Shown: piece by piece, positions 20,830-41,536 of the stretch | How positions within the stretch are numbered: the first letter of the stretch is position 1 | How the letters are laid out: every line of letters starts with the position of its first letter | Origin: Promethearchaeota archaeon | GTDB lineage: Archaea > Asgardarchaeota > Lokiarchaeia > Sigyniarchaeales > SOKP01 | Length of the DNA: 42,687 nt | NCBI GenBank assembly: GCA_019058365.1 | Contig: JAHPZE010000033.1 | Span: forward strand, 1 to 42,687 | Direction of reading: 5' to 3' | Position numbers and translations under genes: made by a program | The notes under the pieces: generated by a model | Database searches by the model: none | What the model was told of the DNA's origin: nothing | What the model saw: only the letters and a program-made list of their open reading frames with translations

Positions 20830-22119
20830 TTATTTAGTTTTAAAAAATCTTCTAGATTCAGCATCTCCAAGTATATAATGGCTCCCACCACCGTGTATCA
20901 TACAGTACGCATCAAGAAGTCCAAATTGATTGCAATATTGCTCTGTAAATGCTCTTCCACCCATGGTTCTAAATAAATCTATGGAACTTTGAAATGCTAA
21001 TTCACATGTTTGAATTTTTAACCCGATTACTTGATTGGCCATCATTTTAGAATCTGCGATTTGTGAACGATTATCGATCTCGCGAGCATAATTCATTAAA
21101 GCTGAAAGGTATAAATTTATTCCTCGAATATTCTTAGCAATTGGAAACCTAATAATTTGATATTGATGTAATTTGTGTTTAAATTGTTCGCGTTGAAGAG
21201 CAAAAGTATGAGAATAAAATAATTTTTTAATACTGTCACCTATTGCTTCAGCACTTATAACCAAACGTTCTTCAGTTAATTGATGAAACATTATATCTAG
21301 TCCATCACCATCGAGAAGATTATCTCTAGGAAGTTCAACATCATCAAAAACCAAACGGCTAACAAATGCATCATTCATACCATAAGTTCTTACTCTAGAG
21401 GATTCAAAATTTTTCAATTGTTGATGTTCAGTATCTACGATTATTCCGCCTAGTCTCCCATTATTTAATCTTCCATAAAGTATAAGGTTCTCAGCTAACA
21501 TCCCATTGGTTATAAATAATTTTTTCCCATTCGCGATAACTTTATCTCCTATCTCATCTAGTTTTAACTCAATTCTAACAATGTCACTTCCTGCGTTAAA
21601 CTCAGTCATGCCAGACGCTGCCATCAAACCATTTTTTATCACAGGAATGAGATATTTTTCCCGTTGATAATCATTAGCTTTATAATTTACAGGATTACAA
21701 TAAAGTGTACCTCCCGATAAACGACCCATTTCAATACTCCAATTCCCACTGACATATCTATCACTATTAGGTGACCAAAAGCCACCACATAAGGATAAGG
21801 CTATTAGAACATTTCTAGTAACATTCCCAACTTCATGATCATCAAAATCAATAACCGTACTATAATAACCCTTTTCAGCTAATTTTTTCATAAAATTAAC
21901 GACGATTTCACTTTTCTTTTCTTGAATTGGTTCTTCTGCCTTATAATTTAATTCTTCCAAGCTTTTTAAATCTTCTTCAAGATATTTTTCCATATATTCA
22001 TAAAATTCAGCTAGGAAATGCTTTTCTTTCACATTAAATATTGGGTTATTCAATATATCCAATTCTGGAATATATTTACTAATTTCGAGTTTCGGAAATT
22101 CTGGGAGTCTTGTATCCAT
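20830..22119 (-). CDS. Acyl-CoA dehydrogenase, divergent, IVD/LCAD-type catalytic Glu position
   Basis: GMTEFNAGSD, NGKKLFITNG, L.FDDV.LP..NLL, LTEERL, REQF...L..YQ.I, MGGRAF and IHGGGS. Start placed at ATG 22119. Confidence 0.88.
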   Translation of the reverse strand: MDTRLPEFPKLEISKYIPELDILNNPIFNVKEKHFLAEFYEYMEKYLEEDLKSLEELNYKAEEPIQEKKSEIVVNFMKKLAEKGYYSTVIDFDDHEVGNVTRNVLIALSLCGGFWSPNSDRYVSGNWSIEMGRLSGGTLYCNPVNYKANDYQREKYLIPVIKNGLMAASGMTEFNAGSDIVRIELKLDEIGDKVIANGKKLFITNGMLAENLILYGRLNNGRLGGIIVDTEHQQLKNFESSRVRTYGMNDAFVSRLVFDDVELPRDNLLDGDGLDIMFHQLTEERLVISAEAIGDSIKKLFYSHTFALQREQFKHKLHQYQIIRFPIAKNIRGINLYLSALMNYAREIDNRSQIADSKMMANQVIGLKIQTCELAFQSSIDLFRTMGGRAFTEQYCNQFGLLDAYCMIHGGGSHYILGDAESRRFFKTK

Positions 22120-22311
22120 AATAAATAAGACAATTTTCACATGATTTTAAATTTTCTTTTCCATTAAGTTGGATTTTATTCCCATCGATGTAAATAAGTT
22201 GATTAGTAATCTTTTAATCAAAACAAAACATAACAATAAAATATTAAATCTATTTGAAAATAAAATTTTTAAAAATTAAATTGATATAAAATATCTAAAA
22301 GTGAAGATATA

Positions 22312-23733
22312 ATGATTAAATTTAGTGATAAACAATTAAAAATACCTAAATTACTGCGACCAGTCTACTTAGCTACAGTTGGAATGTCAAAATTCGATCG
22401 TGCTTTTCCTGAAACGAGGACGGAAGAATTATGTATTCAAGCTTTAACAGCTGCTTCAGATTTTGTTAATATGACGCCAGCAGAATTAAAAAGATTCATT
22501 CATACTGCTTATTATGGTCATTTTGCCGATCATTTCGGTGATCAATTACTTGGAGAGGCTGTGATTCATGATAGACTCGGACTTGATCCTTTAGGAACTA
22601 TTGGTATCAAGACGGGGGGCGCAACAGGTGGATCAACAATGTGGGAAGCGATTAAAGCCGTTGCTTCAGGATATAGTGATTGTGCTTTAGCCTTAGGATG
22701 GGAGCGAATGGATGAAGTGCCTACTGATGAAGGTAATCATCTTATATCATGTGCTGCAGATAAAGATTGGGAAACTCCCCTGGGACATATATATACTGGT
22801 TATTATGCTGTTATGGCTCAAAGATATTGGCAAATTTTTGGGAAAGCTGAAGATTCTTTTAGAAAAACAATGGCAGAAATTGCTGTTAAAAACCGAGGCT
22901 ATGCAAGAATGAATCCTCATGCCCATGGCCCCATGGACATCACTGTGGAGGATGTAATTAACTCTCCTGTTATAGCATATCCTCTTCGCGCTTTAGATTG
23001 TTGTTTGATGAGCGTGGGCGCAGCATGTGGAATTGTATGTGATGAAAAAACAGCCTATGAAATAACGGACAACCCACTTCGGATCTGGATAGGTGCGGGG
23101 AGCCATACACTTAGAGTTGCGGATCGTCGTGATATGAAGATCCCACTTTTACCAAATGAGGAATCAGGGCAATATGATGATTTAGGTAAAAAATTTCCAG
23201 GAGGAGATAGATATCCCGGATTTAGCAGCTTCTTAGCTGCTCGAATTGCTGCTTATTATGCGTATAATATGACGGGTGTTGTTGATCCCAGCGAAGATTT
23301 AGATGTTGTAGAGCTTCATGATGCTTTTACGATTAGTGATATTCAAACCTACGAAGATATTGGAATTCGACCGTATGGGGAAGGCAGGGATTATATTGAG
23401 TCTGGAGATGCGTATGTGATTAATCCAAATACCAATAAACCTGGAAAATTACCTAGCAATCCCTGTGGTGGTTTAATAGGGTGTATGCATGCGGTAGGAG
23501 CTACGGGATTAATGCAAATTGCGGAGATTGGTTACCATATTTGGAACAGATGGGATGAAATCCATGAGCCTGAGGAAAAGTGGAAAGAATTTGGTCGAGA
23601 AAAACCAAAAGATTGGACTAGCTTACAGGTCAAAGGAGCTAAACGAGGGTTAGCCATCAGTCATGCAGGTGTCGGTTCTCATGTAACTTGTACTATAATA
23701 ATGCATCCAAATCATTTAATAAAGGAGGATTAA
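22312..23733 (+). CDS. Thiolase-fold (SCP-x type) protein lacking the nucleophilic Cys
   Basis: Thiolase fold motifs (VGMSKF, GWERM, AVKNR....NP.A, PLRALDCC, VELHDAF, NPCGGLIG.MHAVGATG). The Cys loop reads KTGGATGG. Confidence 0.88.
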   Translation: MIKFSDKQLKIPKLLRPVYLATVGMSKFDRAFPETRTEELCIQALTAASDFVNMTPAELKRFIHTAYYGHFADHFGDQLLGEAVIHDRLGLDPLGTIGIKTGGATGGSTMWEAIKAVASGYSDCALALGWERMDEVPTDEGNHLISCAADKDWETPLGHIYTGYYAVMAQRYWQIFGKAEDSFRKTMAEIAVKNRGYARMNPHAHGPMDITVEDVINSPVIAYPLRALDCCLMSVGAACGIVCDEKTAYEITDNPLRIWIGAGSHTLRVADRRDMKIPLLPNEESGQYDDLGKKFPGGDRYPGFSSFLAARIAAYYAYNMTGVVDPSEDLDVVELHDAFTISDIQTYEDIGIRPYGEGRDYIESGDAYVINPNTNKPGKLPSNPCGGLIGCMHAVGATGLMQIAEIGYHIWNRWDEIHEPEEKWKEFGREKPKDWTSLQVKGAKRGLAISHAGVGSHVTCTIIMHPNHLIKED

Positions 23734-23737
23734 AAAA

Positions 23738-24340
23738 ATGCCAAAAACAGAAGATGAAAAAGGTTTTGTAGATATAGTAAATGGAAGGTATAAAGTGAGA
23801 GGCAAATTTCACATCATTGAAAAAAATCAACCTATCTTTAATAAGGATACAGGAAAGTTAGCAGGTGTTACTAATCCCAGAGATATGACATACATACACT
23901 CATATGGAGGAGAAGGTATATTTTTCGAATCTCTTGGCAAAGGAAAACTAATGGCTACAAGATGTGATAACGATAGATGTGAAACAAAAGGTTCTATTTA
24001 TGAACCATTTCGAATCTATTGCCCAGATTGCTTAAGAAAAAATACTGTTGTAGATATTACTGAAAAAGCTCAAAAAACAGCAAAAATACACTCTTTTATT
24101 ATTACTCATCGTTCTGGAGCTTTTAATACGCTTCCAAAACCAATTAAGTTCATAAACATTGAATTTGATGAAGAAGTAGTCACTATTCTTATGAGCGTGT
24201 TAGTTGTCGGAGAACCAGAAATAGGAAAAAAAGTTGTGCCAATCTTTCGAACCAAGAATCCAACTTATACAATTATGGATTTAATGTTTGTTGTTGAAGG
24301 TACAAAAGAGTCAGAGTTACCTGAAGGTTTTACATTCTAA
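23738..24340 (+). CDS. DUF35-type Zn-ribbon/OB-fold partner of the thiolase-like protein
   Basis: FFESL.KGKLMATRC....C......P.R..CPDC followed by an OB fold ending IGKKV.P.F. Starts 4 nt after the thiolase-like gene with an AGGAGG SD. Confidence 0.85.
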   Translation: MPKTEDEKGFVDIVNGRYKVRGKFHIIEKNQPIFNKDTGKLAGVTNPRDMTYIHSYGGEGIFFESLGKGKLMATRCDNDRCETKGSIYEPFRIYCPDCLRKNTVVDITEKAQKTAKIHSFIITHRSGAFNTLPKPIKFINIEFDEEVVTILMSVLVVGEPEIGKKVVPIFRTKNPTYTIMDLMFVVEGTKESELPEGFTF

Positions 24341-24370
24341 TTTTATTTTTTACAACTCTTTTTTTTATTT
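24341..24370 (+). terminator. Putative archaeal U-rich terminator
   Basis: T-tracts immediately after the stop codon of the DUF35 gene. Confidence 0.4.
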
Positions 24371-24783: not shown

Positions 24784-25683
24784 TCATAACATTACATGTT
24801 CTTGTTTTAGGTGAAATATTTTTCTTGCCTCTTCACCTTGAGCAATTTCTCGTCCTGCAATCTCAGCAACCTTTTTAGCCCATGCTACTTGCTCATAACT
24901 GCCTTTAGCTAATTCTCCTGTAATAATGCGAGTATTATCTTCTAATCCAACACGGATATGCCCTCCCAAAGCTGCAGCACATAATCCAGCTTGAAATTGT
25001 TGTTTAGAAACACCACATACACTCCAAGTAGCTTCTGGAGGTATTAGATCTAGCAGCAAAGCAAGATTTTTTGGGGAGAATGGAATTCCTCCGAGTACGC
25101 CCCATACAAATTGGAAATGTAATGGTTGTGTGAATGTACCTTCTTGTCTATTTAGAAAAAGCATATTATACAAGCCTCCTAAGTCGTAAATTTCCATTTC
25201 TGGTTTAGTGCCTGCTTTTTTCATCTCTTTCGCAAATTTTGAAATCGTTCTAAATGTATTTGCGAAAATATTATCTACGCCCATACCAACTTTTCCTGTT
25301 CGGTAATCACCGACTGCAAAATTCATGGAAGCTGTATTTAAAGATGCTAGGGGGGGTTTAAATGTTTGAACTGGTGCTATTCTTTGTTTATCAGTTGCAA
25401 CTGAACTAATAGCAGTACTTAAATTGATTATTACATCTGGTGCTTTTGATTTAATATTTTCTAGAACTGCTTTTATTAACTCTAACTCATGCGTTGGATT
25501 GCCTTTCTCTGGATCTCGAGCATGAATGTGGACAATCGCAGCACCTGCATCATAACACTTTTTTGCTTCATCTCCAAATTCTTCTGCAGTATAAGGAACA
25601 TCTGGATTATTAGCTTTAGTTGTAATTGCACCAGCTAATGCTGCTGAAATAACTAATTTATTTTCTGGGTTTGAATCTGACAT
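24784..25683 (-). CDS. Beta-keto acid cleavage enzyme (BKACE/DUF849, 3-keto-5-aminohexanoate cleavage family)
   Basis: ISAALAGA, NPDVPYT.EE, AGAAIVHIHAR, ASLN..SMNF, KPEMEIYD, HFQFVWG..GG and GGHIRVGLEDN. Confidence 0.93.
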   Translation of the reverse strand: MSDSNPENKLVISAALAGAITTKANNPDVPYTAEEFGDEAKKCYDAGAAIVHIHARDPEKGNPTHELELIKAVLENIKSKAPDVIINLSTAISSVATDKQRIAPVQTFKPPLASLNTASMNFAVGDYRTGKVGMGVDNIFANTFRTISKFAKEMKKAGTKPEMEIYDLGGLYNMLFLNRQEGTFTQPLHFQFVWGVLGGIPFSPKNLALLLDLIPPEATWSVCGVSKQQFQAGLCAAALGGHIRVGLEDNTRIITGELAKGSYEQVAWAKKVAEIAGREIAQGEEARKIFHLKQEHVML

Positions 25684-25926: not shown

Positions 25927-26060
25927 CAATATTATAATAATTTTAATAATAAATTAAAAAAATGAGAAAATTAAAAATGGATAGAGAAGTTGCAATAGTA
26001 GGATCTGCTCAAACACAATATGAAGCAGAAAAAATAGATTTGACAATTTCAGAATGTGTT
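25927..26060 (+). repeat. Imperfect direct repeat, copy 1 (copy 2 at about 27722-27849), covering upstream region and gene start
   Basis: Both copies begin CAATATTATAAT, continue ATTAAAAAAA.GAGAA...AAAAATGGATA and share the first ~26 codons. Confidence 0.8.
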
Positions 26061-26072
26061 TTAAATATATGA
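25977..26072 (+). pseudogene. Truncated 5' copy of the ltp4-like thiolase-fold gene (31 codons)
   Basis: Reads MDREVAIVGSAQTQYEAEKIDLTISECVLNI* versus MDKVAIVGCAQTKYEAEKIDLTISELVFEV at 27766. 62 of 68 nt are identical over the core. Confidence 0.8.
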
Positions 26073-26082
26073 GGAAATAAAT

Positions 26083-27633
26083 ATGAATCTTAGAGAATTA
26101 GTTAAAAGCCAAGCAGAAAAATATAAGGATAAGGTTTTTTTATATTGGAAAGATATAACGGTCTCCTATTCTCAATTGGATGCATTATCAAATAAAGTAG
26201 CGAATTTTTTATATGATTTAGGAATAAGAAAAGGAGATAAAGTAAGTGTTTACTTACCAAATATACCCGAATATGTGTACTTATACTTAGGTATACCTAA
26301 AATAGGAGCAGTTACTGGTCCTGTGAATGCCTTGTTTAAACCTAGAGAAGTGAAATTTGTCGTTGGGCATTCAGAAGCTAAAGCAATTATTACTATTCCG
26401 AAATTCGTGGAAATAATTAATCAAATTAAAGGAGAACTTCCTAATTTAAAGTATGTAATCATAATCGGAGAACCTGTTGAAGGAACCTTAAATTATAGTG
26501 AATTAATGGAAAAAGCTTCACCTAATGCTCCTCCTGAGGTGAATATCGATGAAAAAAAAGATCCTGCTGCTATACTTTATACTTCAGGAACCACTGGTTT
26601 TCCTAAAGGTGTACTACAAACTCATTTTAACATTAGGAGAAATGCTGAAATGATACGAGATTTCATGGACGCGAAAGAATACTACAGATTTATGCTAATT
26701 TTACCATTATTTCATGTTAATGCTCAAATTGTCACTATTATGGGACCACTTGTAATAGGAGCGAGCTCGATTTTAACACCTGGATTTTCAGCTCAAACAC
26801 ATTGGGAAACTGTTGCAAAATATAAAGCATCTACTTTCAGTTGTGTTCCAACAGTACTTTCTGTTTTACTTAAAATGCCATATGAAAATCTTGATCTTTC
26901 TTCATTAGAATTTATTATTTGTGGAGCTGCTCCTTTACCTGTGGAGGTATTTCGGGCATTTGAAGACACATTTAAATGCAAAGTAGTTGAGGGCTATGGC
27001 CTCACAGAGGGTACATGCGCTTCTTCTGTTAATCCACTACCAACGGAAACCGAAGATAGGCGAAAAATAGGTAGCATCGGTTTACCTTTACCAGGAAATG
27101 AAATGAAAATTGTAGATAGCCAAGGTAACGATCTTCCACCAAATTCTAAAGGTGAAATTGTTGTTAAAGGTGATAACGTCATGAAAGAATATTTCAAAAA
27201 TCCAGAGGCAAACGCTGAAACTCTTAAAGATGGGTGGTTATATACAGGAGATATTGGTCATATGGACGAAGATGGTTTTTTCTACATAACTGATCGTAAA
27301 AAAGATATGATAATCCGAGGAGGAGAAAATATATATCCACGTGAAATTGAGGAAGTGATTTACTCTCATCCAGCAGTTTCATTGGGTACCGTTATTGGAG
27401 TGCGGGATGAGATTTATGGAGAACTTCCTAAAGCTTTTATTGTATTGAAAGAAGGAGAATCTATTGCTGAAGAAGAAATTATCGCATATTGTAAAAAACA
27501 TCTAGCTGATTTTAAAGTACCGAAATACGTGGAATTTAGGGCCAGTCTCCCTCAAACACCTACAGGAAAGATAATGAAACAACCACTTCGCGAAGAGGAA
27601 GAAGCTAAAACAGGGAGAGTATTTAGCACTTAA
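26083..27633 (+). CDS. Long-chain acyl-CoA ligase (ANL adenylate-forming family)
   Basis: YTSGTTGFPKG, LPLFHVNA, EGYGLTEG, GWLYTGDIG, DRKKDMIIRGGENIYPREIE and PQTPTGKI. Confidence 0.94.
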   Translation: MNLRELVKSQAEKYKDKVFLYWKDITVSYSQLDALSNKVANFLYDLGIRKGDKVSVYLPNIPEYVYLYLGIPKIGAVTGPVNALFKPREVKFVVGHSEAKAIITIPKFVEIINQIKGELPNLKYVIIIGEPVEGTLNYSELMEKASPNAPPEVNIDEKKDPAAILYTSGTTGFPKGVLQTHFNIRRNAEMIRDFMDAKEYYRFMLILPLFHVNAQIVTIMGPLVIGASSILTPGFSAQTHWETVAKYKASTFSCVPTVLSVLLKMPYENLDLSSLEFIICGAAPLPVEVFRAFEDTFKCKVVEGYGLTEGTCASSVNPLPTETEDRRKIGSIGLPLPGNEMKIVDSQGNDLPPNSKGEIVVKGDNVMKEYFKNPEANAETLKDGWLYTGDIGHMDEDGFFYITDRKKDMIIRGGENIYPREIEEVIYSHPAVSLGTVIGVRDEIYGELPKAFIVLKEGESIAEEEIIAYCKKHLADFKVPKYVEFRASLPQTPTGKIMKQPLREEEEAKTGRVFST

Positions 27634-27660
27634 TTTTTTTTTAATCTTTATTTTTTTTTT
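27634..27660 (+). terminator. Putative archaeal U-rich terminator
   Basis: Two long T-runs directly after the ligase stop codon. Confidence 0.45.
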
Positions 27661-27765
27661 AATAATTTTAAATCCATTTTTTCTTCAATAATCAATTAAA
27701 AGCTTTTATAGATGATTCATTCAATATTATAATTATTTCTTATTAAAAAAAAGAGAATATGAAAA

Positions 27766-28908
27766 ATGGATAAAGTAGCAATAGTTGGATGTGCTCAAAC
27801 AAAATATGAAGCAGAAAAAATTGATTTAACAATTTCAGAACTTGTTTTTGAAGTTGTTAAAAAGTTACATAATGAGTTAGGAATTACAAATGATGATGTT
27901 GGCTGCGTAATTACTGGTTCGAATGATTTCAATGATGGAAGAACAATAGCGAATATGGCGATTCAAGATGCTGTTGGGTCAGTTAGAAAAGCAGAATCTC
28001 GAGTTTCTGGTGATGGTGCGTTTGCTTATGTGTATGGTGCTATGAGAGTCTTATCTGGAGAATATGAAACTGTTTTGGTTGTTTCACACTCTAAATGCTC
28101 GGAAGGTAATCAGTATCTTATAAACAATTCAATATTTGATCCATTTTATCAGCGACATTTAGGGTTAGATCAAATTTCTTCTGCTGGTTTAATGGCAAAT
28201 ATGTACATGAGCAAATATGGAGTTAGTGAAGAACAAGCTGCAAAAGTGGTAGTAAAAAATCGAAAAAATGCTATTAATAATCCTTATGCTCATCTACAAA
28301 ATGAAATATCCATGGATGATGTTTTGAATTCACCTATGTTGGCATATCCTTTAAAAGAATTAGACTTTCCCCCATATAGTGATGGGGCAGTAGCAATGCT
28401 CCTCACTAATGAGAGCAATGCTAAAAAGTTTACTGATACGCCAGTTTTGTTAAAGGGATATGCAAGTTGTACTGATGCATATTATCTTGGACACCGAACT
28501 ATGACTGATTTAATAGGGTTGGAGCATGCCGCAAAAGAAGCTTTTAAAATGGCTGAAATTAAAGATCCAATCAAAGATCTAGATGTAGCTGAAGTTTTTG
28601 AAGCTTTTTCTGTGCATGAACTTATGATATATGAAGCTTTAGGATTATGTGGGAAAGGAGAGGGAGGTAAATTTATTGAAAGGGGAGAAACACAAATAGA
28701 TGGATCAATTCCAGTAAATCCATCAGGAGGCGTATTATCTAGCAATGTTGCGATGGCTAATGGTTTAATTCGTGTAGCAGAGATTGCTTCACAACTAATG
28801 GGTAAAGCAGAAAAGCGACAAATAGCTGATGCAAAAACAGGATTAGCTTACGGAATGAATGGGATATGCTCACAAGGGAATTGTGTATTAATATTCGGAG
28901 GTGAATAA
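27766..28908 (+). CDS. Ltp4-like thiolase-fold protein (no catalytic Cys or His)
   Basis: L.NELGIT..D.G....GS.D...GR, ESRVSGDGAFA, DP.....L..D.IS.AGL.A, VNPSGGVLSSN...A.GL.R and Q.NC follow mycobacterial Ltp4 (Rv3522) as I recall it. Cys loop replaced by SGDG. Confidence 0.8.
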   Translation: MDKVAIVGCAQTKYEAEKIDLTISELVFEVVKKLHNELGITNDDVGCVITGSNDFNDGRTIANMAIQDAVGSVRKAESRVSGDGAFAYVYGAMRVLSGEYETVLVVSHSKCSEGNQYLINNSIFDPFYQRHLGLDQISSAGLMANMYMSKYGVSEEQAAKVVVKNRKNAINNPYAHLQNEISMDDVLNSPMLAYPLKELDFPPYSDGAVAMLLTNESNAKKFTDTPVLLKGYASCTDAYYLGHRTMTDLIGLEHAAKEAFKMAEIKDPIKDLDVAEVFEAFSVHELMIYEALGLCGKGEGGKFIERGETQIDGSIPVNPSGGVLSSNVAMANGLIRVAEIASQLMGKAEKRQIADAKTGLAYGMNGICSQGNCVLIFGGE

Positions 28909-28911
28909 AAG

Positions 28912-30084: not shown

Positions 30085-30089
30085 TAAAG

Positions 30090-30566: not shown

Positions 30567-30577
30567 GAGGGATAAAA

Positions 30578-31027: not shown

Positions 31028-31064
31028 ATATTAATATTAAAGAATTTTTACTTCTTCTTTTTTT

Positions 31065-33305: not shown

Positions 33306-34136
33306 ATGAAAATGAGTGAAAACGCTGTTTTAATAGATGAAAACGAAGATAAAACAATTACGACTATAAAAATGAATCGTTTAGAAAAGAAAAATGCTAT
33401 GAATTATGATTTAATGGTCGGACTTCAAAAGGCAATTGATAAAGTGGAACGAACGAATACAAGAGTCGTCATCATTACTGGAGGAGATGATTTCTTTAGT
33501 TCAGGTATAGATTTAAACTTTTTAACTGGTCAAGAAAAAGATCCTGAGGGTGTTATTCCTGATTTACGAATTCCGAGGAATTTTAGATATTTTGCTAATA
33601 CATGGATCCATCCAATTTTTACAAAAATAGAGAAAATGGAAAAACCCGTTATCGCTAAAATAAATGGCTATTGTTATGGTATGGCATTTGAGCTAGCATT
33701 AGCATGTGATTTTCGATTTTGTACAGAATCAGCTGAATTCCATATGTTAGAATCTAGGATAGGTATGAACCCAGACGTGGGAGGTACAATCAGGTTAACA
33801 AGACTTGTGGGTATCCAAAATACTAAAGATATCATTTTAACTGGACGTCAATTTGATGGAAATGAAGCTTATAGACTTGGAGTTGTAAATCGGGTTGTTA
33901 AAAATCATGAAGAATTAAATTCAATTATTAAAATGTATACTAATGAACTAATGGCTAGTGGACCTTTAGCAATTGGACTTGCAAAAAAGTTGATAGATGA
34001 TTGTTATGGGAAGGATACTGCTTTTGGTTTAGAGCTTGAAACATTAGTAAGTTCTCAATTACTTCAAACTAAAGATGCTGTAAACGCTGCTTTAGCTCGC
34101 TTAACAAAGACTAAGCCTAAATGGCGATGGAAATAA
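33306..34136 (+). CDS. Enoyl-CoA hydratase/isomerase (crotonase) with both catalytic Glu
   Basis: FSSGIDL, KPVIAKINGYCYGMAFELALACDFR and MLESRIGMNPDVGG. Confidence 0.92.
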   Translation: MKMSENAVLIDENEDKTITTIKMNRLEKKNAMNYDLMVGLQKAIDKVERTNTRVVIITGGDDFFSSGIDLNFLTGQEKDPEGVIPDLRIPRNFRYFANTWIHPIFTKIEKMEKPVIAKINGYCYGMAFELALACDFRFCTESAEFHMLESRIGMNPDVGGTIRLTRLVGIQNTKDIILTGRQFDGNEAYRLGVVNRVVKNHEELNSIIKMYTNELMASGPLAIGLAKKLIDDCYGKDTAFGLELETLVSSQLLQTKDAVNAALARLTKTKPKWRWK

Positions 34137-34149
34137 TTATTATTTCATT

Positions 34150-35997
34150 TTAAAGTTCTTTTAAAGCCAGTTTTTTCAATTTTTCTTGATTTGGCTTTCC
34201 AGTTTCGAGATCCCATTCTCTATAATTATAATACTCTTTTTTTAATTGCTCAAAGTTAGGTGATTTACCAGCGCATTCCATTGCTTTTAGTGGTTCAAGC
34301 AGGATTTTTGGTAATCGATCATCTTTGGGAGAAATCCCCATTTTTAGATTAAATAGTCTTTTTATCATGAAAATTCTTTCACCATAATCTTTAAGTTTTT
34401 CAATATCACAATTTAGCCCTATAGCTGTTTGTACTAATCTAGCAATTATTGATGGTAGTGGATTCGCGAAAACACACATAATTAATGAACTATAAAGAGA
34501 ACGATAATCTTGAGCTCTAGAACTCATTATAGCCATTTCTGAATCATCCTTAAATTTATCAATAGTTTCTATTCCAAATTCTTCAAGAGGAGTTCCTAAT
34601 AAAATAGTACACATATCACAAGAATTATGGCAAGGACCTCTAGGAGGAGCTATTGCATATGCTATTACCATACCGAAATTAGATCTTAGATCATGATATG
34701 GTACTTCCATTCCATATACTGTTGCTATTTCATCTTGATTTATATTAAATTCTTTCCCTATTGCATCAGATCCCTCAGCTAATAAATCCCCTATACCTTC
34801 TCTTAGTGATATTTTTTCAATCATCTCTAAAGCAGGATTAATATCCCCCCATTTAGGATTCAATCCATTTATTTGTTCAGAACTGATTTTGCCCGAACCA
34901 TATAAATAATATATAAATGCTATTATACTACTACAACTAATTGTATCAATCCCATAATCGTTACATAATACATTTGCTTTTACAATTGATTCTATATTAT
35001 CATTTAAAATCATAGAGCCAAAACCAGCGAGAGTTTCATATTCTGGAGCCTCAACCTCTCCATCAGTTTTATAGATTCCTGTTTTTACAAGAGCTTTTTT
35101 AGCACATCCAATAGGACACGAAAAGCAGGGATATTTCCGTTTAATAGTTTTTTCTAGAGCCGTCATTCCAGAAATATTGTAAGCACCTTCCCATTCTTCA
35201 CCAAGGGTCCAATATTTCTTAGGTATTTCTCCAGTTGAATTCCATAAGTCTATACCGGCAGATGTACCAATATCACCATACATTTTGGATGTAAATGCTT
35301 GATTCACATCATTTAATGCTTTCTGGACTGATACTTTGAACTTTTCTGAGTCTGCAACTTCATATTGTTTTTTTTTACCTCGAACAGTTATAGCTTTTAA
35401 CCTTTTTGAACCCATGACTGCCCCCATTCCCGTTCTTCCCGCGGCTTTCTCTTCCGAGGCAATTATAGCATACTTAACTAAATTTTCGCCCGCCTGTCCG
35501 ATGCATGCAATCCTAGTTAAAGGTGAATCTGATTTTTCTTTTAATATTTTTGAAGTTTCTAATATCCCCTTTCCCCATAGAAATACTGCATCCTTAATCT
35601 TAGTACCATCTTCCGTAATTTTAAGATAAACAGGATTTCTTGAAGCACCTTTAATAATAATACCATCATAGCCTGCTTTCTTAAGCTCTGGACCAAAGTA
35701 TCCTCCACAATTAGATTCTCCCCAAATTCCTGTATAAGGAGATTTTGCACATACAACAAATCTTCCACTTGTTGGAATAGTTGAGCCGCAGAATGGGCCC
35801 GTCATAAACATTAAAATATTTCCTGGAGATAAAGGATCTGTATCTTTTTCGAGATAATCATAAAGATATCTACAACAATATCCAGCACCTCCAAGAAAAT
35901 CTTTTGCGATCTCTTCATTAAGCGATTCTTCAGAAATTTCTTGGTTAGATAAATTAACTATTAATAATTTGCCTGCAAACCCTTTCAGAGCCCCCAT
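34150..35997 (-). CDS. aor: Tungsten-dependent aldehyde:ferredoxin oxidoreductase family protein
   Basis: FLGG.G, DPLSP.N.L, KSPYTG, ELKKAGYDGIII.G, IGQAGEN, AAGRTGMGAVMGSKRLKAI, CFSCPIGC, EYET and YY..REWD...G.P. Confidence 0.93.
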   Translation of the reverse strand: MGALKGFAGKLLIVNLSNQEISEESLNEEIAKDFLGGAGYCCRYLYDYLEKDTDPLSPGNILMFMTGPFCGSTIPTSGRFVVCAKSPYTGIWGESNCGGYFGPELKKAGYDGIIIKGASRNPVYLKITEDGTKIKDAVFLWGKGILETSKILKEKSDSPLTRIACIGQAGENLVKYAIIASEEKAAGRTGMGAVMGSKRLKAITVRGKKKQYEVADSEKFKVSVQKALNDVNQAFTSKMYGDIGTSAGIDLWNSTGEIPKKYWTLGEEWEGAYNISGMTALEKTIKRKYPCFSCPIGCAKKALVKTGIYKTDGEVEAPEYETLAGFGSMILNDNIESIVKANVLCNDYGIDTISCSSIIAFIYYLYGSGKISSEQINGLNPKWGDINPALEMIEKISLREGIGDLLAEGSDAIGKEFNINQDEIATVYGMEVPYHDLRSNFGMVIAYAIAPPRGPCHNSCDMCTILLGTPLEEFGIETIDKFKDDSEMAIMSSRAQDYRSLYSSLIMCVFANPLPSIIARLVQTAIGLNCDIEKLKDYGERIFMIKRLFNLKMGISPKDDRLPKILLEPLKAMECAGKSPNFEQLKKEYYNYREWDLETGKPNQEKLKKLALKEL

Positions 35998-36032
35998 AAT
36001 ATAATTCCCCTTCTTAAATTATAGTAATGGTT

Positions 36033-37232
36033 TTAAAAATCAATATCTTTTCCTTCGTAAGCATAATAATATATTTTCCTGTAATATTCATCTGTAATTG
36101 ATCTTGGGGTCATTACACTTGTAGCGTCTTGAAAACAACAAGCAACTAACATATCAATATTATTCTCAAAATCTGTTCTTGAAACTCCTAAATCTTGTAA
36201 TTTAGCGGGAAAATCAACCGTCTTTTGTAGTTCTTTGATTTTATCGACAGCTTTAAATGCTGCTTTTTTGTTATCTTCATCCCATTTAGTCCATCCCAGC
36301 TGTTTAGCAATTTTAGAATATATTTCTAAGGTCTCATCATCTTTATCAGGATTATTCAGACAAAATTGTGAGATATATGGAAGTAAAATTCCAACTGTTT
36401 TTCCATGATGTGTATGAAAGACAGCACCCCAACTATGACCCATACCATGACCAATATGAACTTGAGAGTTGCTGAAAGCTAAACCAGCCATAGTAGCTGC
36501 TTGATGTAGGTAATCTCTTGCTTCCAGATTTTTCCCATCTTTGTAGACAATTGGCAAATATTTAAAAATAAGCTCTATAGCTTTTAAACCCATTGCATTT
36601 GAAAATTCATTCTTCCAATTAGACACCATACCTTCAATAGCATGAGATAAGGCATCAAAAGCCGTATCGACTGTTAAATTTGGAGGCATACCCTTAGGAA
36701 AGATAGGATCCACTATAGCATACGTAGGAGTGATTCCCCTGTGAGCATAAATAAACTTTTTCCATATATCATCCTCAAGTCGAGAAATAATTGTTCCATT
36801 TGTTGCCTCTGAACCTGTTCCCGAAGTAGTTGGAATTGCAATAAATTTAGCTTTTTTACCAGTCTCATACAAATCAGATCTAAAAAGATGAATATCATCA
36901 ATGTTCAATTCTGGAAATTCATATAAAACCCATGTTGTTTTCCCAGTATCTATAACAGATCCTCCACCTAAAGCTATAATTAAGTCGGGAGAATAAAAAT
37001 TACACTGTTCTCTCGCCTTTAAAACGCCTTGTTCCCTTGGATCAGGAATAACTTCATTAAATACTTGGAATTTTTTACCAAATTTTTCTAATTTTTCTGT
37101 CAATATTTTAAGATAACCTAATTTTTCAATATTTTTATCAGTAACAATAAAACATTTATTACCCTTAATATTTTGAATAAAATCAAGGCTATCTTCTCCA
37201 TAAATTATATTTGGACTGTAGAAATACCACAT
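36033..37232 (-). CDS. Iron-containing alcohol dehydrogenase
   Basis: GGGSVID, IPTTSGTGSE, DALSHAIE, AGLAFSNS, HGMGH and HHG metal ligands. Confidence 0.93.
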   Translation of the reverse strand: MWYFYSPNIIYGEDSLDFIQNIKGNKCFIVTDKNIEKLGYLKILTEKLEKFGKKFQVFNEVIPDPREQGVLKAREQCNFYSPDLIIALGGGSVIDTGKTTWVLYEFPELNIDDIHLFRSDLYETGKKAKFIAIPTTSGTGSEATNGTIISRLEDDIWKKFIYAHRGITPTYAIVDPIFPKGMPPNLTVDTAFDALSHAIEGMVSNWKNEFSNAMGLKAIELIFKYLPIVYKDGKNLEARDYLHQAATMAGLAFSNSQVHIGHGMGHSWGAVFHTHHGKTVGILLPYISQFCLNNPDKDDETLEIYSKIAKQLGWTKWDEDNKKAAFKAVDKIKELQKTVDFPAKLQDLGVSRTDFENNIDMLVACCFQDATSVMTPRSITDEYYRKIYYYAYEGKDIDF

Positions 37233-37341
37233 ATTTTTCCCCTATAAAATTAGTATTAATGTTTTGAATATACTCCTTAAATAAAAACTATTTTTCTTTG
37301 AAAAATCCATTCTGATAAAAAAAAATAAAGTTAGAATATTT

Positions 37342-37743
37342 TTATAAAAATTCAAATTCGAAGCGACCAAGACTGTTCACAATCTCTAACGCAGCTTTAG
37401 TATGACGCATTAATTTAGCCATGTCGCCTTCAAGTCTTAATTTACCAGCCATTATAGCTCTTATTGGATCAATTTCTTTTTTCGTAACAGCTACAAAATT
37501 ATCATAAGGTCCAGCCATGGTATATTCTGTTTCTATTTCTTCACTTTCTGGTACAAGTCTAGTTCCTGTACATTCTCCGTGATATAATCCGATAAATACT
37601 CTAACTACGTGATCTAAATTACCACTAGGTTCGATAACAAGAAGCATATTCCCTTCCCAAGTAAGAGCTGATGGTTTGTAATCTGGATTTTCATTTATAG
37701 CCTTACCGAATGCTTCAACCCATTCTTCTGATAATATTTTCAT
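37342..37743 (-). CDS. SCP2 sterol/lipid-carrier domain protein
   Basis: SEEW.......IN....Y......W.G and IDPIRAIMAGKLRLEGDMAKLMR are the SCP2 signature. ATG 37743. Confidence 0.88.
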   Translation of the reverse strand: MKILSEEWVEAFGKAINENPDYKPSALTWEGNMLLVIEPSGNLDHVVRVFIGLYHGECTGTRLVPESEEIETEYTMAGPYDNFVAVTKKEIDPIRAIMAGKLRLEGDMAKLMRHTKAALEIVNSLGRFEFEFL

Positions 37744-37824
37744 TCTTATCACTTTTATATTTCTTCATAATTTTTTAATATATTAATTGGTAAAATTGAA
37801 TTTAAGATTTCAATTTTTTTAAAT

Positions 37825-39024
37825 TTAGATTAAAGTTAAATCAATATGTATATCAGTTAAAGGATATGAAACACATGGATGAATATAACCATAATCTTGA
37901 TCAATTTCTCTTATTGTCACTTCTGGGAGCGTGAATATTTTACCTGATACAAGTTTAGTTCTACACAAAGCACATGCCCCTGAACGGCATCCATTATTAA
38001 TACTTATGCCTAACTCTTTTTCTCTTTCAAGTGTATTTAATAAAGGCTCAACACATGGAGCTTCAATTACTTTCTTAATACATTTTCCTTGTTGTATGAG
38101 TTCAATAGTAATCTTTATAGCATTTGAAGATGTAATATCTTTTGGCCATCCTGTTATTCCTGTTACATCATCAGGAACACCATAAGATTCATATATAATA
38201 CGATGTGGGGGGACCCCTAATTCTTTCATTTGTTCTTTTATGAATGAATACATTGCGCGATTTCCAACTATATAAAAGAATTTGTTTTCAACCAATTTTA
38301 TCTGATCTAAAATCTTATCTTTTGTAATAAATCCACAGGCACCATCCCAATTTGGTCCCGGTTCTGACAGAATATATTGAACTCTGATGTTAGAGCGTCT
38401 TGTCACTAAATCTTCAAGTTCATCTTTAAATAAAATATGATCCTCAGATAAACATCCAAATAACAGCCAAATATTCAATCCTAAGTTCCGTTGAGAGATA
38501 TCTCTTAATAATGAAATGAATGGTGTAATTCCAGAACCACCAGCAATAAAAACTAAATCTTTTCCATGAAAAACACGATTATAATACAATTCCCCTAAAG
38601 GTTCTGTCGCTTCTAATATATCTCCAACTTTTAAGGTATCAAGTAAATAGATACTAACAAAACCTCCCTCTTTTCTTTTTACTCCTAATTCATAATAAGC
38701 AAGTTGATTTGGAGACGAAACAAGTGAAAAAGGTCTAGATGTTCTTACACCATTAATTTCCACATTGAGACCAATATATTGACCTGCTCTGAATGGTGCT
38801 AATGGTTTGTCATACCTTGCTGAAACGAAACGGAATAGCTTAGTATCTTTAGAAAGTTCTTGTATGTCTGTGATTTGCAATAATTGCTTTTCTGGATGAA
38901 TACGTTCACAAAGATTTTCCAATCCATCAAAGTAATATGGAATTGGCTCAACTTCATCTCGCCACTTTTTTAATTTTTCAAGTTTCTGATATTTTTTTAC
39001 ATCATTCATTATCTCTTTTTCCAT
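37825..39024 (-). CDS. FNR-type FAD/NAD(P)H oxidoreductase with C-terminal 2Fe-2S domain (PaaE/KshB/Hcr architecture)
   Basis: FRAGQY, RPFSLVSSP, GFVS.YL, IAGGSGITPF.S and CRSGACALC...L.SG...PCVSYP. Confidence 0.9.
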   Translation of the reverse strand: MEKEIMNDVKKYQKLEKLKKWRDEVEPIPYYFDGLENLCERIHPEKQLLQITDIQELSKDTKLFRFVSARYDKPLAPFRAGQYIGLNVEINGVRTSRPFSLVSSPNQLAYYELGVKRKEGGFVSIYLLDTLKVGDILEATEPLGELYYNRVFHGKDLVFIAGGSGITPFISLLRDISQRNLGLNIWLLFGCLSEDHILFKDELEDLVTRRSNIRVQYILSEPGPNWDGACGFITKDKILDQIKLVENKFFYIVGNRAMYSFIKEQMKELGVPPHRIIYESYGVPDDVTGITGWPKDITSSNAIKITIELIQQGKCIKKVIEAPCVEPLLNTLEREKELGISINNGCRSGACALCRTKLVSGKIFTLPEVTIREIDQDYGYIHPCVSYPLTDIHIDLTLI

Positions 39025-39027
39025 TTC

Positions 39028-40581
39028 TTACCACCTCTCTTCTTTTTCATCTCTTAAATACATTCCAGCAGCAATCCTCCCGCTAAGAATGCTTGTAGAG
39101 AATCCACCACCGACATTAGTCCAAGCACCACTCTGATATAATCCTGGAATTGAGCCTCGGCTTTTTAATCGCAGTGTTGGACCATTTAAAAGATCTTGAG
39201 TATATCCATAGATGGCCCCTTCTATATTTTTTGAATATCGATAATATGTTAGAGGAGTTGCAGCTTCTGCTACTTCTATATACTCACGAATATCTGGACA
39301 AATAGTTTTTTCGACCAATTCAACCATTTTGTCAGCAATATAATCTTTAACTCTAAAATATTGATCAGGAGAAATTGATTGCCATAATTTACCCATTTGT
39401 AATGTAGTAAGAACAAGTTGGGTTGTTCCTGGAGGTGTGATATCATTATAAATATGATTATAGCAAGCGGCTACCATATATTTAGGAGGTTCTAACTTAG
39501 TAAACGTTTCATATGCTTTATTTAAATCATCTGTTTCATTAATAAACATCTCATGAACATTCAATCCCAAATCTTTATATGGAGCGTTTAACCCTATATA
39601 AACTGAGAATGCAGACGGCCCTATTTCTGGAGCATAAATCTTTTTTTTATAATTATCCGGTACGATATCTTTGGGAAGCATCTTCATTGTTGTACATATT
39701 GGATTAACATTTGAAATTACTGCTTTACATTCATAAATGTCACCATTAATAAGTTCAACACCACACACTCTCCCCTTTTGAACTAGTATTCGGTTAACTA
39801 AAGCATTATACCTAATATTACCTCCTAATTCTTCAAAAGCTTTCACAATAGCAGTTGTAAAAGCATGTGATCTTCCCATCGGAAAAGCAGCACCCCATCT
39901 TAAATATGTAATTAACATAGCAATGAATGCATAGGCGTTTAATCTAGAAGGAGGTAACCCCAAATATCCCCACAATTGTGCAATAATTGCCATCAAGCGT
40001 TTATCAGTAAAGAATTTATCGAATACCTCTTGTAATGTAAGCCCAGAAACCCGTACAAGCCAAGGATGTTCCTTAAGAACTTCTGCCTGTGAATATTGAC
40101 CTCTTCTTCTCACCATAAATTCAATACCATCTAATACTTTTCGACACATATCTATAAATTCCTCTATTCCCTTTTTCTCAGAGGGAAAAAGTTCTATGAG
40201 TTTCTCAGTATATTCTTCTAGTCCGATAGGTAAGGTAACATCATATCCATCTAAAAATACACTTCTATAAAATTCTGGAATTTGTTTGAATTGGATTTTG
40301 TTCGGAATTACTCCTATTTTCTCTAAAAATCGGTATAAGCTACCTTTATTGGCTTCTGTACCAATATCACTTAATTCATGTAAAGCACCCTCAAATTCAA
40401 AACGCCCCCTAACAAAGGATGTAGCAAAACCTCCCGGGACATTATGTTTTTCCAATAATAATACTTTCTTCCCAACAAGAGCAAGTTGACAAGCAGCACC
40501 AAGTCCTCCGAGACCAGCACCAATGACAATTATTGGATAGGTGCCCACCACTCTACTTTCATCATAAATACTATCATTCAT
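39028..40581 (-). CDS. Phytoene desaturase/CrtISO/retinol saturase-like flavoprotein
   Basis: VIGAGLGGL, LLEKHNVPGGFATSF.RG.FEFE, S.FSVYIG, ATPLTY.RY....GAIYG and IPGLY..G.W...GGG....LSG..AA. Start placed at ATG 40581. Confidence 0.88.
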   Translation of the reverse strand: MNDSIYDESRVVGTYPIIVIGAGLGGLGAACQLALVGKKVLLLEKHNVPGGFATSFVRGRFEFEGALHELSDIGTEANKGSLYRFLEKIGVIPNKIQFKQIPEFYRSVFLDGYDVTLPIGLEEYTEKLIELFPSEKKGIEEFIDMCRKVLDGIEFMVRRRGQYSQAEVLKEHPWLVRVSGLTLQEVFDKFFTDKRLMAIIAQLWGYLGLPPSRLNAYAFIAMLITYLRWGAAFPMGRSHAFTTAIVKAFEELGGNIRYNALVNRILVQKGRVCGVELINGDIYECKAVISNVNPICTTMKMLPKDIVPDNYKKKIYAPEIGPSAFSVYIGLNAPYKDLGLNVHEMFINETDDLNKAYETFTKLEPPKYMVAACYNHIYNDITPPGTTQLVLTTLQMGKLWQSISPDQYFRVKDYIADKMVELVEKTICPDIREYIEVAEAATPLTYYRYSKNIEGAIYGYTQDLLNGPTLRLKSRGSIPGLYQSGAWTNVGGGFSTSILSGRIAAGMYLRDEKEERW

Positions 40582-40720
40582 AAAAAATAATTCTATTAGA
40601 TAACATTTAAAATTATAGATTTTAGATATTAAAATTACATTTTTTAACAAATAAGAAAAAGAGAATAGTAATTTCTCTTTTGAATGAAGAGTTTACTATA
40701 GATTTTATTAAATTATTTGT

Positions 40721-41536
40721 TTAACGTCCAATAAATATAGGATCTCTTTTTTCTTTAATAGATTTCATAGATTCGCTAAAATCTTTTGAAGTAAAAGCCT
40801 TTCTCAATGCTCTATTCTCCAAATCTAATGTTCTCTCTAATATATCTTTAAAATAAGAATGCATTGTTTTTTTCATTAGCTTTAATGATAAAGATGCACC
40901 TTTAGGAGGGATTAACCTTAAAGCTTGTTCTCTAGCATAAGGTATTAGTTCGTCTGGTGGGAGGATTTTGTTGACGAGTCCTAGTTCATATGCTCTCTGT
41001 GCCGTAATTTCTTCACCAAAATAACAAATTTCTTTTGCTTTTTGAAAACCGACTAATAATGGTAAAAGAAATGAACATGCAAATTCAGGTACTATCGCTC
41101 TTTTGGAGAAAAAAAATCCCAGCCAAGCATCTTCTGCCATAAAAATCAAATCCGCACAAGCTAAAGGCATAGTTATTCCGCCTCCTATAGCCATACCATT
41201 AATTGCAGCTATAACTGGCTTATTAAAATCCCAAAATTTCATACACACCTTTTTTTGTGCGATATCCATGATATCAATTTCTGGATATTTTCTCATTTCT
41301 TCCATCATTTCTGGTTTAAAATATCCTCCAGAGGTAAAAGCATTTCCTCTAGGATCTCCCGTAATGATTAGCACTTTAGCATTTTTATCCTTATCCATAT
41401 CCTCTAGAACTGTATACAATTCTAAAAAACTAATATAAGTTACAGCATTTCTTCCCTCGGGTCTTGAAATAGTTGCTGTACAAATTCCATTATCTTCCTT
41501 TTCATAAATAATATCTTCAAAATCTTCTATTCGCAT
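40721..41536 (-). CDS. Crotonase-family protein, ECI2-type delta3,delta2-enoyl-CoA isomerase-like
   Basis: KPVIAAINGMAIGGGITMPLACADL lacks the hydratase Glu; IVPEFACSFLLP.LVG carries the ECI2-type PE motif. Confidence 0.82.
   Translation of the reverse strand: MRIEDFEDIIYEKEDNGICTATISRPEGRNAVTYISFLELYTVLEDMDKDKNAKVLIITGDPRGNAFTSGGYFKPEMMEEMRKYPEIDIMDIAQKKVCMKFWDFNKPVIAAINGMAIGGGITMPLACADLIFMAEDAWLGFFFSKRAIVPEFACSFLLPLLVGFQKAKEICYFGEEITAQRAYELGLVNKILPPDELIPYAREQALRLIPPKGASLSLKLMKKTMHSYFKDILERTLDLENRALRKAFTSKDFSESMKSIKEKRDPIFIGR

Follow-up and report, generated by a model that had tools for sequence, protein, structure and literature searches.

The stretch of DNA analysed here, which we call the window, is an entire contig of 42,687 bases (contig C5 of the assembly) from a Lokiarchaeial genome of 4.74 Mb in 54 contigs with about 30% G+C. 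Between positions 20830 and 41536 it carries an island of 17 consecutive open reading frames (ORFs) for acyl-CoA and lipid chemistry, all full-length and free of internal stops by Pfam and NCBIfam scans: an acyl-CoA dehydrogenase (ACAD), three thiolase folds (ThlA, ThlB and ThlC), three DUF35 proteins, a BKACE protein, an AMP-forming acyl-CoA ligase, a FadH-like reductase, two crotonases (ECH1 and ECH2), an aldehyde:ferredoxin oxidoreductase (AOR), an Fe-containing alcohol dehydrogenase (Fe-ADH), an SCP2-fold protein, an FNR-type reductase and a CrtI-like flavoprotein. Every domain assignment made in a first-pass annotation of the island is borne out by Pfam or NCBIfam matches or, for one DUF35 protein (DUF35c), by a protein match and a zinc-ribbon motif. 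Given that paralogue counts put these families at about 2% of the genome's genes, 17 of them in a row are far beyond chance. The last two enzymes of classical beta-oxidation, 3-hydroxyacyl-CoA dehydrogenase (HADH) and a thiolase with nucleophilic Cys (Cys-thiolase), had been reported missing from the window. Domain and profile scans of the contig agree, finding no 3HCDH, no short-chain dehydrogenase/reductase (SDR) and no Cys-thiolase. MaoC and medium-chain dehydrogenase/reductase (MDR) genes are likewise absent from the window by domain scans; the genome's MaoC genes are on C8, C30 and C46. Gene spacing points to translational coupling within ThlA-ThlB-DUF35a-DUF35b, ThlC-DUF35c and CrtI-FNR. 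Central to our reading is the pair ThlA and ThlB, which we propose may cleave lipid acyl-CoAs by a retro-aldol reaction.

The thiolase folds and their DUF35 partners all lie on the forward strand. ThlA (27766-28908) is followed by ThlB (28912-30084), by DUF35a (30081-30566), which overlaps the ThlB stop by 4 nucleotides, and by DUF35b (30578-31027). DUF35a joins a zinc ribbon (CPKC...CADC) to an OB fold (Pfam zf-ChsH2 and OB_ChsH2_C), and DUF35b, identified by Pfam and its ribbon motif, has the same build with CPKC...CFEC. ThlC (22312-23733, 473 residues) was placed by NCBIfam PRK06365 (668 bits against a cut-off of 695), by alignment to PDB structures and by its motifs. Its divergent DUF35-like partner, DUF35c (23738-24340, 200 residues), starts 4 nucleotides further on and accompanies ThlC wherever it is seen in relatives. 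DUF35c has no Pfam hit; its standing as the third DUF35 protein is supported by a match to the DUF35 protein at C27:12286-12780 (E 3e-8) and by a Cx4C...CxxC ribbon. Active-site residues were read by aligning the three folds with thiolases of known structure and with the Cys-thiolases of the same genome, and these alignments uphold the earlier description of all three folds as Cys-less. In ThlA the nucleophile loop is shortened by a deletion (VSG---DGAF), FEAF stands where HDCF/YDHF would be, and Asn replaces His. ThlB reads TGGTTG in the loop, followed by Tyr285-Glu-Pro-Thr (YEPT) and Asn334 for His. ThlC has Gly at the nucleophile (GGATGG) and HDAF for HDCF, and it keeps the His. In all three, then, Gly or a deletion replaces the nucleophilic Cys and the Cys of HDCF is gone, and ThlA and ThlB also lack the His of GHP. 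By comparison, the genome's thiolase on C13 reads GACASSG, HDCF and GHP, and a functional SCP2-type thiolase C-A-S-G, HDCF and GHP. With these residues, ThlA, ThlB and ThlC are predicted to be unable to form the acyl-enzyme for thiolysis or Claisen condensation. We rejected selenocysteine or a mini-intron at the absent Cys, as the site holds either ordinary Gly codons or a gap of three residues, neither a stop nor an insert is present, and the same residues occur in bacteria. Seven of the 12 thiolase-fold genes of the genome lack the nucleophilic Cys; another such fold, at C17:15210-16433, reads NGPASG and retains HDAF and GHP.

We find that ThlA and ThlB have relatives in sterol-degrading Actinobacteria. 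A tblastn search of ThlB against annotated plasmids returned actinobacterial proteins at about 40% identity. In Tsukamurella NZ_LR134446 (locus L152, 4398-10161) the gene order is crotonase, AMP-ligase, a tandem-DUF35 gene, a thiolase fold (Ltp4) and a thiolase fold (Ltp3), and a P450 and a 'steroid 3-ketoacyl-CoA thiolase' lie downstream. The Tsukamurella proteins exceed the NCBIfam cut-offs for EchA19, for PRK08313 (Ltp3; 734 against 514) and for PRK07937 (Ltp4; 593 against 419), the last a lipid-transfer protein family of Ltp4 length. In BLASTP against all ORFs of the archaeal genome, Tsukamurella Ltp3 matches ThlB best (41% identity, 264 bits), and the two are reciprocal best hits; for Ltp4, two ThlA-type proteins rank best; and both halves of the tandem-DUF35 protein match DUF35a and DUF35b. 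Ltp3 and ThlB have T/AG-x-x-GGS, Y-x-P and S/T-N-P-I-G-A in common, and Ltp4 and ThlA the loop deletion. In a maximum-likelihood tree ThlA-type proteins form a clade with Ltp4 (100/100) and ThlB-type proteins one with Ltp3 (98/97), both actinobacterial rows (Tsu_Ltp4 and Tsu_Ltp3) standing on long branches, and ThlC-type proteins group with Cys-thiolases (100/99) apart from the Ltp3/4 clades. Reciprocal best hits together with a shared clade for each paralogue were thus found for ThlA and Ltp4 as well as for ThlB and Ltp3. Because both archaeal proteins score under the curated NCBIfam cut-offs, we place them, by sequence, as distant members of the Ltp4/Ltp3 lineage outside the curated families. 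The tree clades imply that the A/B duplication predates the spread of the pair, which occurs across Asgard archaea, Chloroflexota, Thermodesulfobacteriota, Planctomycetota, Spirochaetota and Actinomycetota.

The likeness extends to the surroundings of the pair. Actinobacterial Ltp3-Ltp4, which sit beside FadD19 and EchA19 in a sterol C24-branch module, likewise form a tandem of Ltp4-type then Ltp3-type with two DUF35 units, and a crotonase and an AMP-ligase near the pair are common to the island (26083-31027 and 33306-34136) and L152. The two settings differ in that DUF35 takes the form of two separate genes after the pair in the island and of one fused gene before it in Actinobacteria. The island host is an anaerobic archaeon, and P450 and sterol ring-degradation genes are absent from the island, unlike the actinobacterial setting; conversely, the CrtI-like/FNR, BKACE, ThlC/DUF35c and AOR partners are missing from the actinobacterial locus. 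In two related loci, L093 and L097, a single ORF downstream of ThlB scores about 390 bits to DUF35b where other loci carry two DUF35 genes, and it may correspond to the fused tandem form seen in Actinobacteria.

Could such a pair be a retro-aldolase? Two solved retro-aldolases, TcLtp2-ChsH2 (PDB 6OK1) and CtSal-CtShy (PDB 9MYR), consist, like ThlB with its partners, of a thiolase fold without nucleophilic Cys and a zinc-ribbon DUF35 protein. The essential base of thiolase-fold aldolases is the first-position Tyr of the HDCF-equivalent motif, Y294DHF in TcLtp2 and Y302DCY in CtSal, and both enzymes act downstream of an ACAD and a hydratase (PMC12329534). The counterpart of Tyr294 (TcLtp2) and Tyr302 (CtSal) in the alignment is Tyr285 of ThlB, and the three motifs (YDHF, YDCY and YEPT) all begin with Tyr. 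Of 92 ThlB-type proteins, archaeal and bacterial, 87 have Y-x-P, as does Tsukamurella Ltp3; ThlA-type proteins vary at this site (YDAF in 45 of 81, HAPF in Ltp4). Because the Tyr site is kept in the one type and variable in the other, ThlB is probably the catalytic subunit and ThlA a non-catalytic structural partner. Against the TcLtp2 and CtSal structures ThlB scores only 74-91 bits, below thiolases and the Cys-less 4YZO. TcLtp2 and CtSal are homodimers, whereas ThlA/ThlB form a hetero-pair of two paralogues, and the hydratase is a crotonase in the island and a MaoC protein fused to DUF35 in the Ltp2/Sal systems. According to PMC6273163, which cites Wilbrink 2012, knockouts of ltp3/ltp4 block degradation of C24-branched sterol side chains and leave that of straight ones unaffected, and these knockouts are the basis for the 'aldol-lyase' label that Ltp3 and Ltp4 bear in the literature. 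The first-pass annotation had proposed aldol cleavage at a branch point; both the lineage and this phenotype fit.

Of 36 other species in the genus, 10 have the orthologous island in the same order, at 85-97% protein identity. Gene order is thus conserved in relatives, as the first-pass annotation had required of its proposal, although this synteny is weak evidence alone, because unrelated flanks are equally conserved. A search of three closed genomes from this order (4.3, 4.4 and 6.0 Mb) gave no match to ThlB. More telling are linkage counts from a scan of species-representative genomes, in which 17 Lokiarchaeial loci measured 15 kb or more. In all 17 the Ltp pair has CrtI-like, FNR and crotonase genes as neighbours, in 15 BKACE, in 15 a ligase and in 13 an ACAD; ECH1 is there in 13, ECH2 in 14 and ThlC-DUF35c in 9. 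Six rearranged loci (L076, L091, L093 and L096-L098) retain the neighbours of the pair. The remaining genes are accessory, Fe-ADH and SCP2 occurring in 9 loci each, AOR in 3 and FadH in 2, and AOR is missing from the islands of genomes G014 and G016. The carrier and 'alcohol to aldehyde to acid' steps, once placed within the pathway proper, therefore do not belong to its constant part. BKACE is retained in the Jordarchaeia and Freyarchaeota versions and stands beside the pair across Jordarchaeia, Chloroflexota, Thermodesulfobacteriota and Spirochaetota; bacterial loci, with the order DUF35-ThlA-ThlB-DUF35, bring BKACE (at least 11), MaoC hydratases (12), ACADs (9) and CoA-transferase subunits (6-7). 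Of 80 related loci, 2 have an HADH and 3-4 a Cys-thiolase, and neither enzyme is encoded in any of about 34 Asgard loci, so that the absence first seen in the window is general among Asgard versions of the island. On these linkage counts the core consists of the Ltp pair with DUF35, hydratase/isomerase, ACAD, ligase and BKACE, to which Lokiarchaeia add CrtI-FNR; within this species group, FadH and the AOR-ADH-SCP2 block come as optional extras.

Several of the other island genes fit branched or unsaturated substrates. An IVD/LCAD-type arrangement of the catalytic Glu occurs in acyl-CoA dehydrogenases for branched or bulky substrates. The divergent ACAD (20830-22140, reverse strand, 436 residues; Pfam Acyl-CoA_dh_M 37 bits and Acyl-CoA_dh_1 45 bits) has its catalytic Glu291 (TEER) at this position and Gly at the MCAD Glu376 position in an alignment to isovaleryl-CoA dehydrogenase (4KTO), in keeping with the dehydrogenation of a branched substrate proposed earlier. 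ECH1 (33306-34136, forward; Pfam ECH_1 152 bits) has both hydratase glutamates (AFELA and MLESR) and is probably a hydratase. ECH2 (40721-41536, reverse), also of crotonase fold, has neither; its Glu151 lies at the position of Asp136, the catalytic residue of PaaG, a delta3,delta2-isomerase homologue (PMC7497051). ECH2 is thus probably an enoyl-CoA isomerase, which suits the double-bond editing foreseen in the first-pass annotation. Its paralogues at C19:5742-6575 and C18:21956-22777 also lack the hydratase glutamates and are PaaG-isomerase-like, so that an annotation as enoyl-CoA hydratase fits neither ECH2 nor them. The ligase (26083-27633, forward) is placed by Pfam AMP-binding (330 bits) and NCBIfam PRK06187 (526 bits against a cut-off of 476). 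Directly before it lies a remnant of the ThlA start (25977-26072, forward), a copy of the promoter region and first 31 codons that aligns with 27640-27870 (68 of 81 coding bases identical). The copy includes a promoter-like AT-rich stretch and reaches upstream to about 25930, and many relatives have no ligase at this position. It looks as if the ligase gene was inserted behind a second copy of the ThlA control region; this speaks for co-expression.

ECH2 is the first gene of a same-strand block, ECH2-CrtI-FNR-SCP2-FeADH-AOR. The CrtI/CrtISO/RetSat-like flavoprotein (39028-40650, reverse; Pfam Amino_oxidase) aligns over its full length with PDB 4DGK and 4REP and reaches 157 bits to the NCBIfam carotenoid isomerase, below the cut-off. 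As homologues are 517 residues long, its true start is probably 40581 (517 residues), the annotated TTG start lying 23 codons early. A homologue search returned almost only Asgard proteins with generic names ('phytoene desaturase family / prolycopene isomerase') and no functional lead. The gene ends 3 nucleotides ahead of that for the FNR-type NAD(P)H reductase (37825-39024, reverse; FAD_binding_6, NAD_binding_1 and Fer2), whose C-terminal plant-type 2Fe-2S domain gives it the architecture of phthalate dioxygenase reductase; PDB 2PIA aligns over residues 49-386. A CrtI-like gene is always followed by an FNR/2Fe-2S gene, three times in the genome: in the window and, in unrelated contexts, at C43:56749-59551 and C46:43197-45991. 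The two form an uncharacterised two-component flavoenzyme and, standing in a row with ECH2 on one strand, may make up a unit for double-bond isomerisation or saturation. Downstream follow the SCP2-fold lipid-binding protein (37342-37752, reverse; Pfam SCP2 36 bits), Fe-ADH (36033-37232, reverse; Pfam Fe-ADH and ADH_Fe_C) and the tungsten-type AOR (34150-35997, reverse; AFOR_N 263 and AFOR_C 334 bits). Sal-Sad bile-acid side-chain shortening in Proteobacteria follows the same logic of ACAD, hydratase, aldolase and aldehyde oxidation, and AOR would here replace Sad; unlike Sad, it is ferredoxin-dependent and accessory. The FadH/BaiCD-type reductase (31065-33077, reverse), an enoate/dienoyl-CoA reductase built of old yellow enzyme (OYE) and pyridine-nucleotide-disulphide domains (Oxidored_FMN 226 and Pyr_redox_2 104 bits), falls under every NCBIfam cut-off. 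BKACE (24784-25683, reverse) is full-length (Pfam PF05853, 308 bits) and scores below the cut-offs of all named NCBIfam members, including Kce (267 against 382) and the 3,5-dioxohexanoate enzyme (239 against 430).

Elsewhere in the genome, all outside contig C5, there are 8 strong 3HCDH/HADH genes and 5 Cys-thiolases; totals that include the island copies are 22 AMP-ligases, 20 crotonases, 16 AORs and 12 ACADs. HADH and other acyl-CoA genes cluster on C8, C21 and C53, and Cys-thiolases lie on C8 and C46. Given that both enzymes are plentiful elsewhere, the island lacks the two steps by composition, and the genome-wide search for HADH and Cys-thiolases shows that it is not self-sufficient. A second set on C27 (locus L069, 78-14033) combines a paralogous ligase and ACAD with DUF35-ThlA'-ThlB'-DUF35 and ThlC'-DUF35-SCP2, and this repetition of the same combination is evidence that its parts function together. 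The C27 cluster also holds a beta-eliminating lyase and two ABC exporters, and the C27-type Ltp pair is far commoner in the genus than the C5-type. We also considered removal of the branch through carboxylation, of the Atu/Liu type or the sterol C28 type, and rejected it. The 100%-complete genome contains no PF01039 match for a biotin-dependent acyl-CoA carboxylase, and PF02786, for biotin carboxylase, matches only a carbamoyl-phosphate-synthase-like frame of 1085 residues. Aerobes deal with beta-methyl branches by this route; where it is missing, the task would fall to a direct lyase. A lone Hydantoinase_B gene on C16, the sole ketone-carboxylase candidate, is unlinked to the island.

The explanation we consider best, and in which our confidence is about even, is that the island is a co-functioning Lokiarchaeial set built around a ThlA/ThlB heteromer of Ltp4/Ltp3 type that cleaves branched or unsaturated lipid acyl-CoAs by a retro-aldol reaction. 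Gene content, the absent thiolase residues, the kinship with Ltp3/Ltp4 and the conserved linkage are observed; the aldolase chemistry, the order and direction of the steps and the class of substrate we infer. The heteromer would be held by the two DUF35 zinc-ribbon proteins. A hydrophobic acid would be activated by the ligase, desaturated by the IVD/LCAD-type ACAD and hydrated by ECH1 to a 3-hydroxyacyl-CoA whose beta-carbon is branched or otherwise blocked for HADH and thiolase. ThlB, with Tyr285 as base, would then split it into acetyl- or propionyl-CoA and an aldehyde or ketone. Double bonds would be prepared by ECH2, the CrtI/CrtISO-like flavoprotein and the FNR/2Fe-2S reductase; in some species AOR, Fe-ADH and SCP2 would take care of aldehyde and alcohol forms and of solubility; ordinary cycles would draw on HADH and thiolases from other loci. 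As candidate substrates, this scheme would accommodate both isoprenoid and C24-alkyl sterol side chains. A bolder extension, which we hold to be doubtful, is a Lokiarchaeial bypass of the beta-alkyl block in such chains that depends on neither O2 nor biotin. Here the IVD-type ACAD and a crotonase would yield a tertiary 3-hydroxy-3-alkylacyl-CoA, the Ltp4/Ltp3-DUF35 complex would split it into acetyl-CoA and a ketone, the ketone would be carboxylated and BKACE would feed the resulting beta-keto acid back into the CoA pool at no ATP cost, while the trio of CrtISO-like protein, FNR and isomerase edits the double bonds of the chain.

A number of observations weigh against a co-functioning retro-aldol set. 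The second catalytic residue is absent from ThlB, which has Asn334 at the Tyr344(Ltp2)/His site and Pro287 at the Cys304(Sal)/His296 site, and as this residue is not conserved the Ltp2/Sal mechanism is not simply transferable to ThlB. ThlA of this genome has Phe (FEAF) instead of Tyr. Both proteins miss the curated NCBIfam cut-offs (ThlB 375.6 against 514 for PRK08313, ThlA 196.9 against 419 for PRK07937), and the searchable literature gave no in-vitro aldolase activity for any Ltp3/Ltp4-type protein. The island is no single operon, being split into at least 7 transcription units on both strands; it has no regulator gene, and nine intergenic regions compared with one another yielded no operator or palindrome common to the units, only the duplication of the ThlA 5' region. 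BKACE substrates are free beta-keto acids, and the island encodes no evident source of them, which weakens the earlier proposal that BKACE provides an alternative C-C cleavage. Finally, re-activating the acid product by the AMP-ligase in every cycle would cost more ATP than an anaerobe gains; with an aldolase/AOR/AMP-ligase cycle at this price, the module most likely serves only occasional blocked positions and not main chain shortening.

Could the island instead be an accessory cluster of ordinary beta-oxidation, passing straight-chain acyl-CoAs to the HADH and Cys-thiolases elsewhere, with the Cys-less folds as scaffolds or lipid-transfer proteins? The genome's wealth of HADH, Cys-thiolases, ligases, crotonases, ACADs and AORs would suit such a role, as would the database name 'lipid-transfer protein' and the SCP2 protein of the island. 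We think it unlikely, since the Ltp3-type signature (Y-x-P, Asn and the Gly-rich loop) is kept from Asgard archaea to Actinomycetota, which favours a conserved active site over decay, since the HADH and thiolase clusters sit separately on other contigs and every Asgard version of the island does without both enzymes, and since the ltp3/ltp4 knockouts block only branched-chain sterols (PMC6273163). It is similarly improbable that the island merely juxtaposes independent modules (Ltp pair, ThlC/ACAD, BKACE, CrtI-FNR and AOR-ADH-SCP2) whose coherence comes from a crowded genome. The number of transcription units speaks for this, and so do the variable presence of AOR, Fe-ADH, SCP2 and FadH, the exchange of BKACE for 63-70% identical versions or its absence in some relatives, the CrtI-FNR pairs that stand alone on C43 and C46, and the fact that most synteny comes from one genus, where the unrelated GlpD and RNase H-like flanks are conserved too. 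What counts against juxtaposition is the constancy of CrtI-FNR and crotonase beside the Ltp pair in 17 of 17 loci, six of them rearranged, the recurrence of BKACE beside the pair across Jordarchaeia and bacterial phyla, the repetition of ligase, ACAD, Ltp pair, ThlC and SCP2 on C27, and the gain of a ThlA promoter by the ligase.

An anabolic direction, be it CoA-dependent elongation and fatty-acid synthesis or the aldol addition to acetyl-CoA of an aldehyde made by AOR, appears very unlikely to us. Aldol addition is thermodynamically easier than Claisen condensation, and AOR is able to reduce acids. A fatty-acid-synthesis complex centred on KT/DUF35 is known from Sulfolobus, and 3.8 KT/DUF35 pairs per genome in 67% of 62 Asgard genomes have been counted as possible synthesis genes (Schmerling et al., bioRxiv 10.1101/2024.07.05.601840). 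The Sulfolobus proteins and the archaeal thiolase/HMG-CoA synthase/DUF35 complex (PDB 6ESQ) pair an SCP2-type thiolase fold with an adjacent DUF35 as the island does, but their thiolases have the Cys/His/Cys set for Claisen chemistry, and the genome's equivalent is on C13, outside the island. Claisen condensation requires the nucleophilic Cys that ThlA, ThlB and ThlC lack, so that for the KT/DUF35 pairs of this island the missing Cys contradicts a role in fatty-acid synthesis; moreover, an SDR ketoreductase, MaoC dehydratase and MDR enoyl reductase are all absent from the island, and ACAD with AMP-ligase is typical of catabolism. There remains the proposal of the first-pass annotation itself, a complete and self-contained route for phytol, phytanol or archaeal isoprenoid chains from carrier to aldol cleavage at the beta-methyl branch, which we rate as a poor prospect. 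The IVD/LCAD-type base of the ACAD, the CrtISO/RetSat-like enzyme with its own reductase and an isomerase-type crotonase, the presence of SCP2, Fe-ADH and AOR in the genome and the need for a direct lyase where the biotin carboxylase bypass is absent all agree with it. Yet no evidence singles out the substrate, the genes for the alcohol and aldehyde steps count as accessory, being found in 3-9 of 17 loci, a methyl ketone product would need a carboxylase for which only the unlinked Hydantoinase_B gene is a candidate, and alternate cycles still require HADH and thiolase from elsewhere; homology speaks at least as strongly for a sterol side chain (Ltp3/Ltp4, EchA19-like and BaiCD-like hits).

The first-pass annotation knew of no description of such a pathway in Asgard archaea, and we did not find the archaeal module in the searchable literature either. 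The Ltp3/Ltp4 lineage, known only from knockouts in sterol-degrading Actinobacteria, appears here as an old two-paralogue family of anaerobic archaea and bacteria. DUF35 always accompanies the pair and BKACE often does, which suggests a general and so far uncharacterised mode of C-C cleavage for acyl-CoAs on which HADH and thiolase fail. Given that seven of the 12 thiolase folds in this genome are Cys-less, the Asgard KT/DUF35 counts for fatty-acid synthesis, and beta-oxidation calls too, are likely to be inflated. If the bypass is true, Asgard archaea in anoxic sediment could live on phytol, eukaryotic sterols or the membrane lipids of archaea, and if the substrate is an isoprenoid or a sterol this would bear on how the closest archaeal relatives of eukaryotes handle two lipid worlds. 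ThlA-ThlB-DUF35a-DUF35b (27766-31027) offers a defined four-gene target for biochemistry.

The remainder of the window belongs to other functions. Rfam and tRNA scans of the window gave no matches. One-carbon genes of tetrahydromethanopterin (H4MPT) metabolism (MTD, FTR and MtrH) border the region, and the island stops ahead of the MtrH gene: a methylene-H4MPT dehydrogenase, a formyltransferase and an MtrH-like methyltransferase are encoded within 105-2035 and 41614-42546, so that Wood-Ljungdahl/H4MPT genes adjoin the lipid genes. Directly upstream of the island, at 17969-20710, are genes for a GlpD-like FAD glycerol-3-phosphate dehydrogenase and for an RNase H-like protein of exonuclease fold. 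This pair holds the same position in genomes G005, G031, G009 and G036 and at loci L073, L083 and L088, and a link of the GlpD-like gene to catabolism of the lipid backbone is possible.

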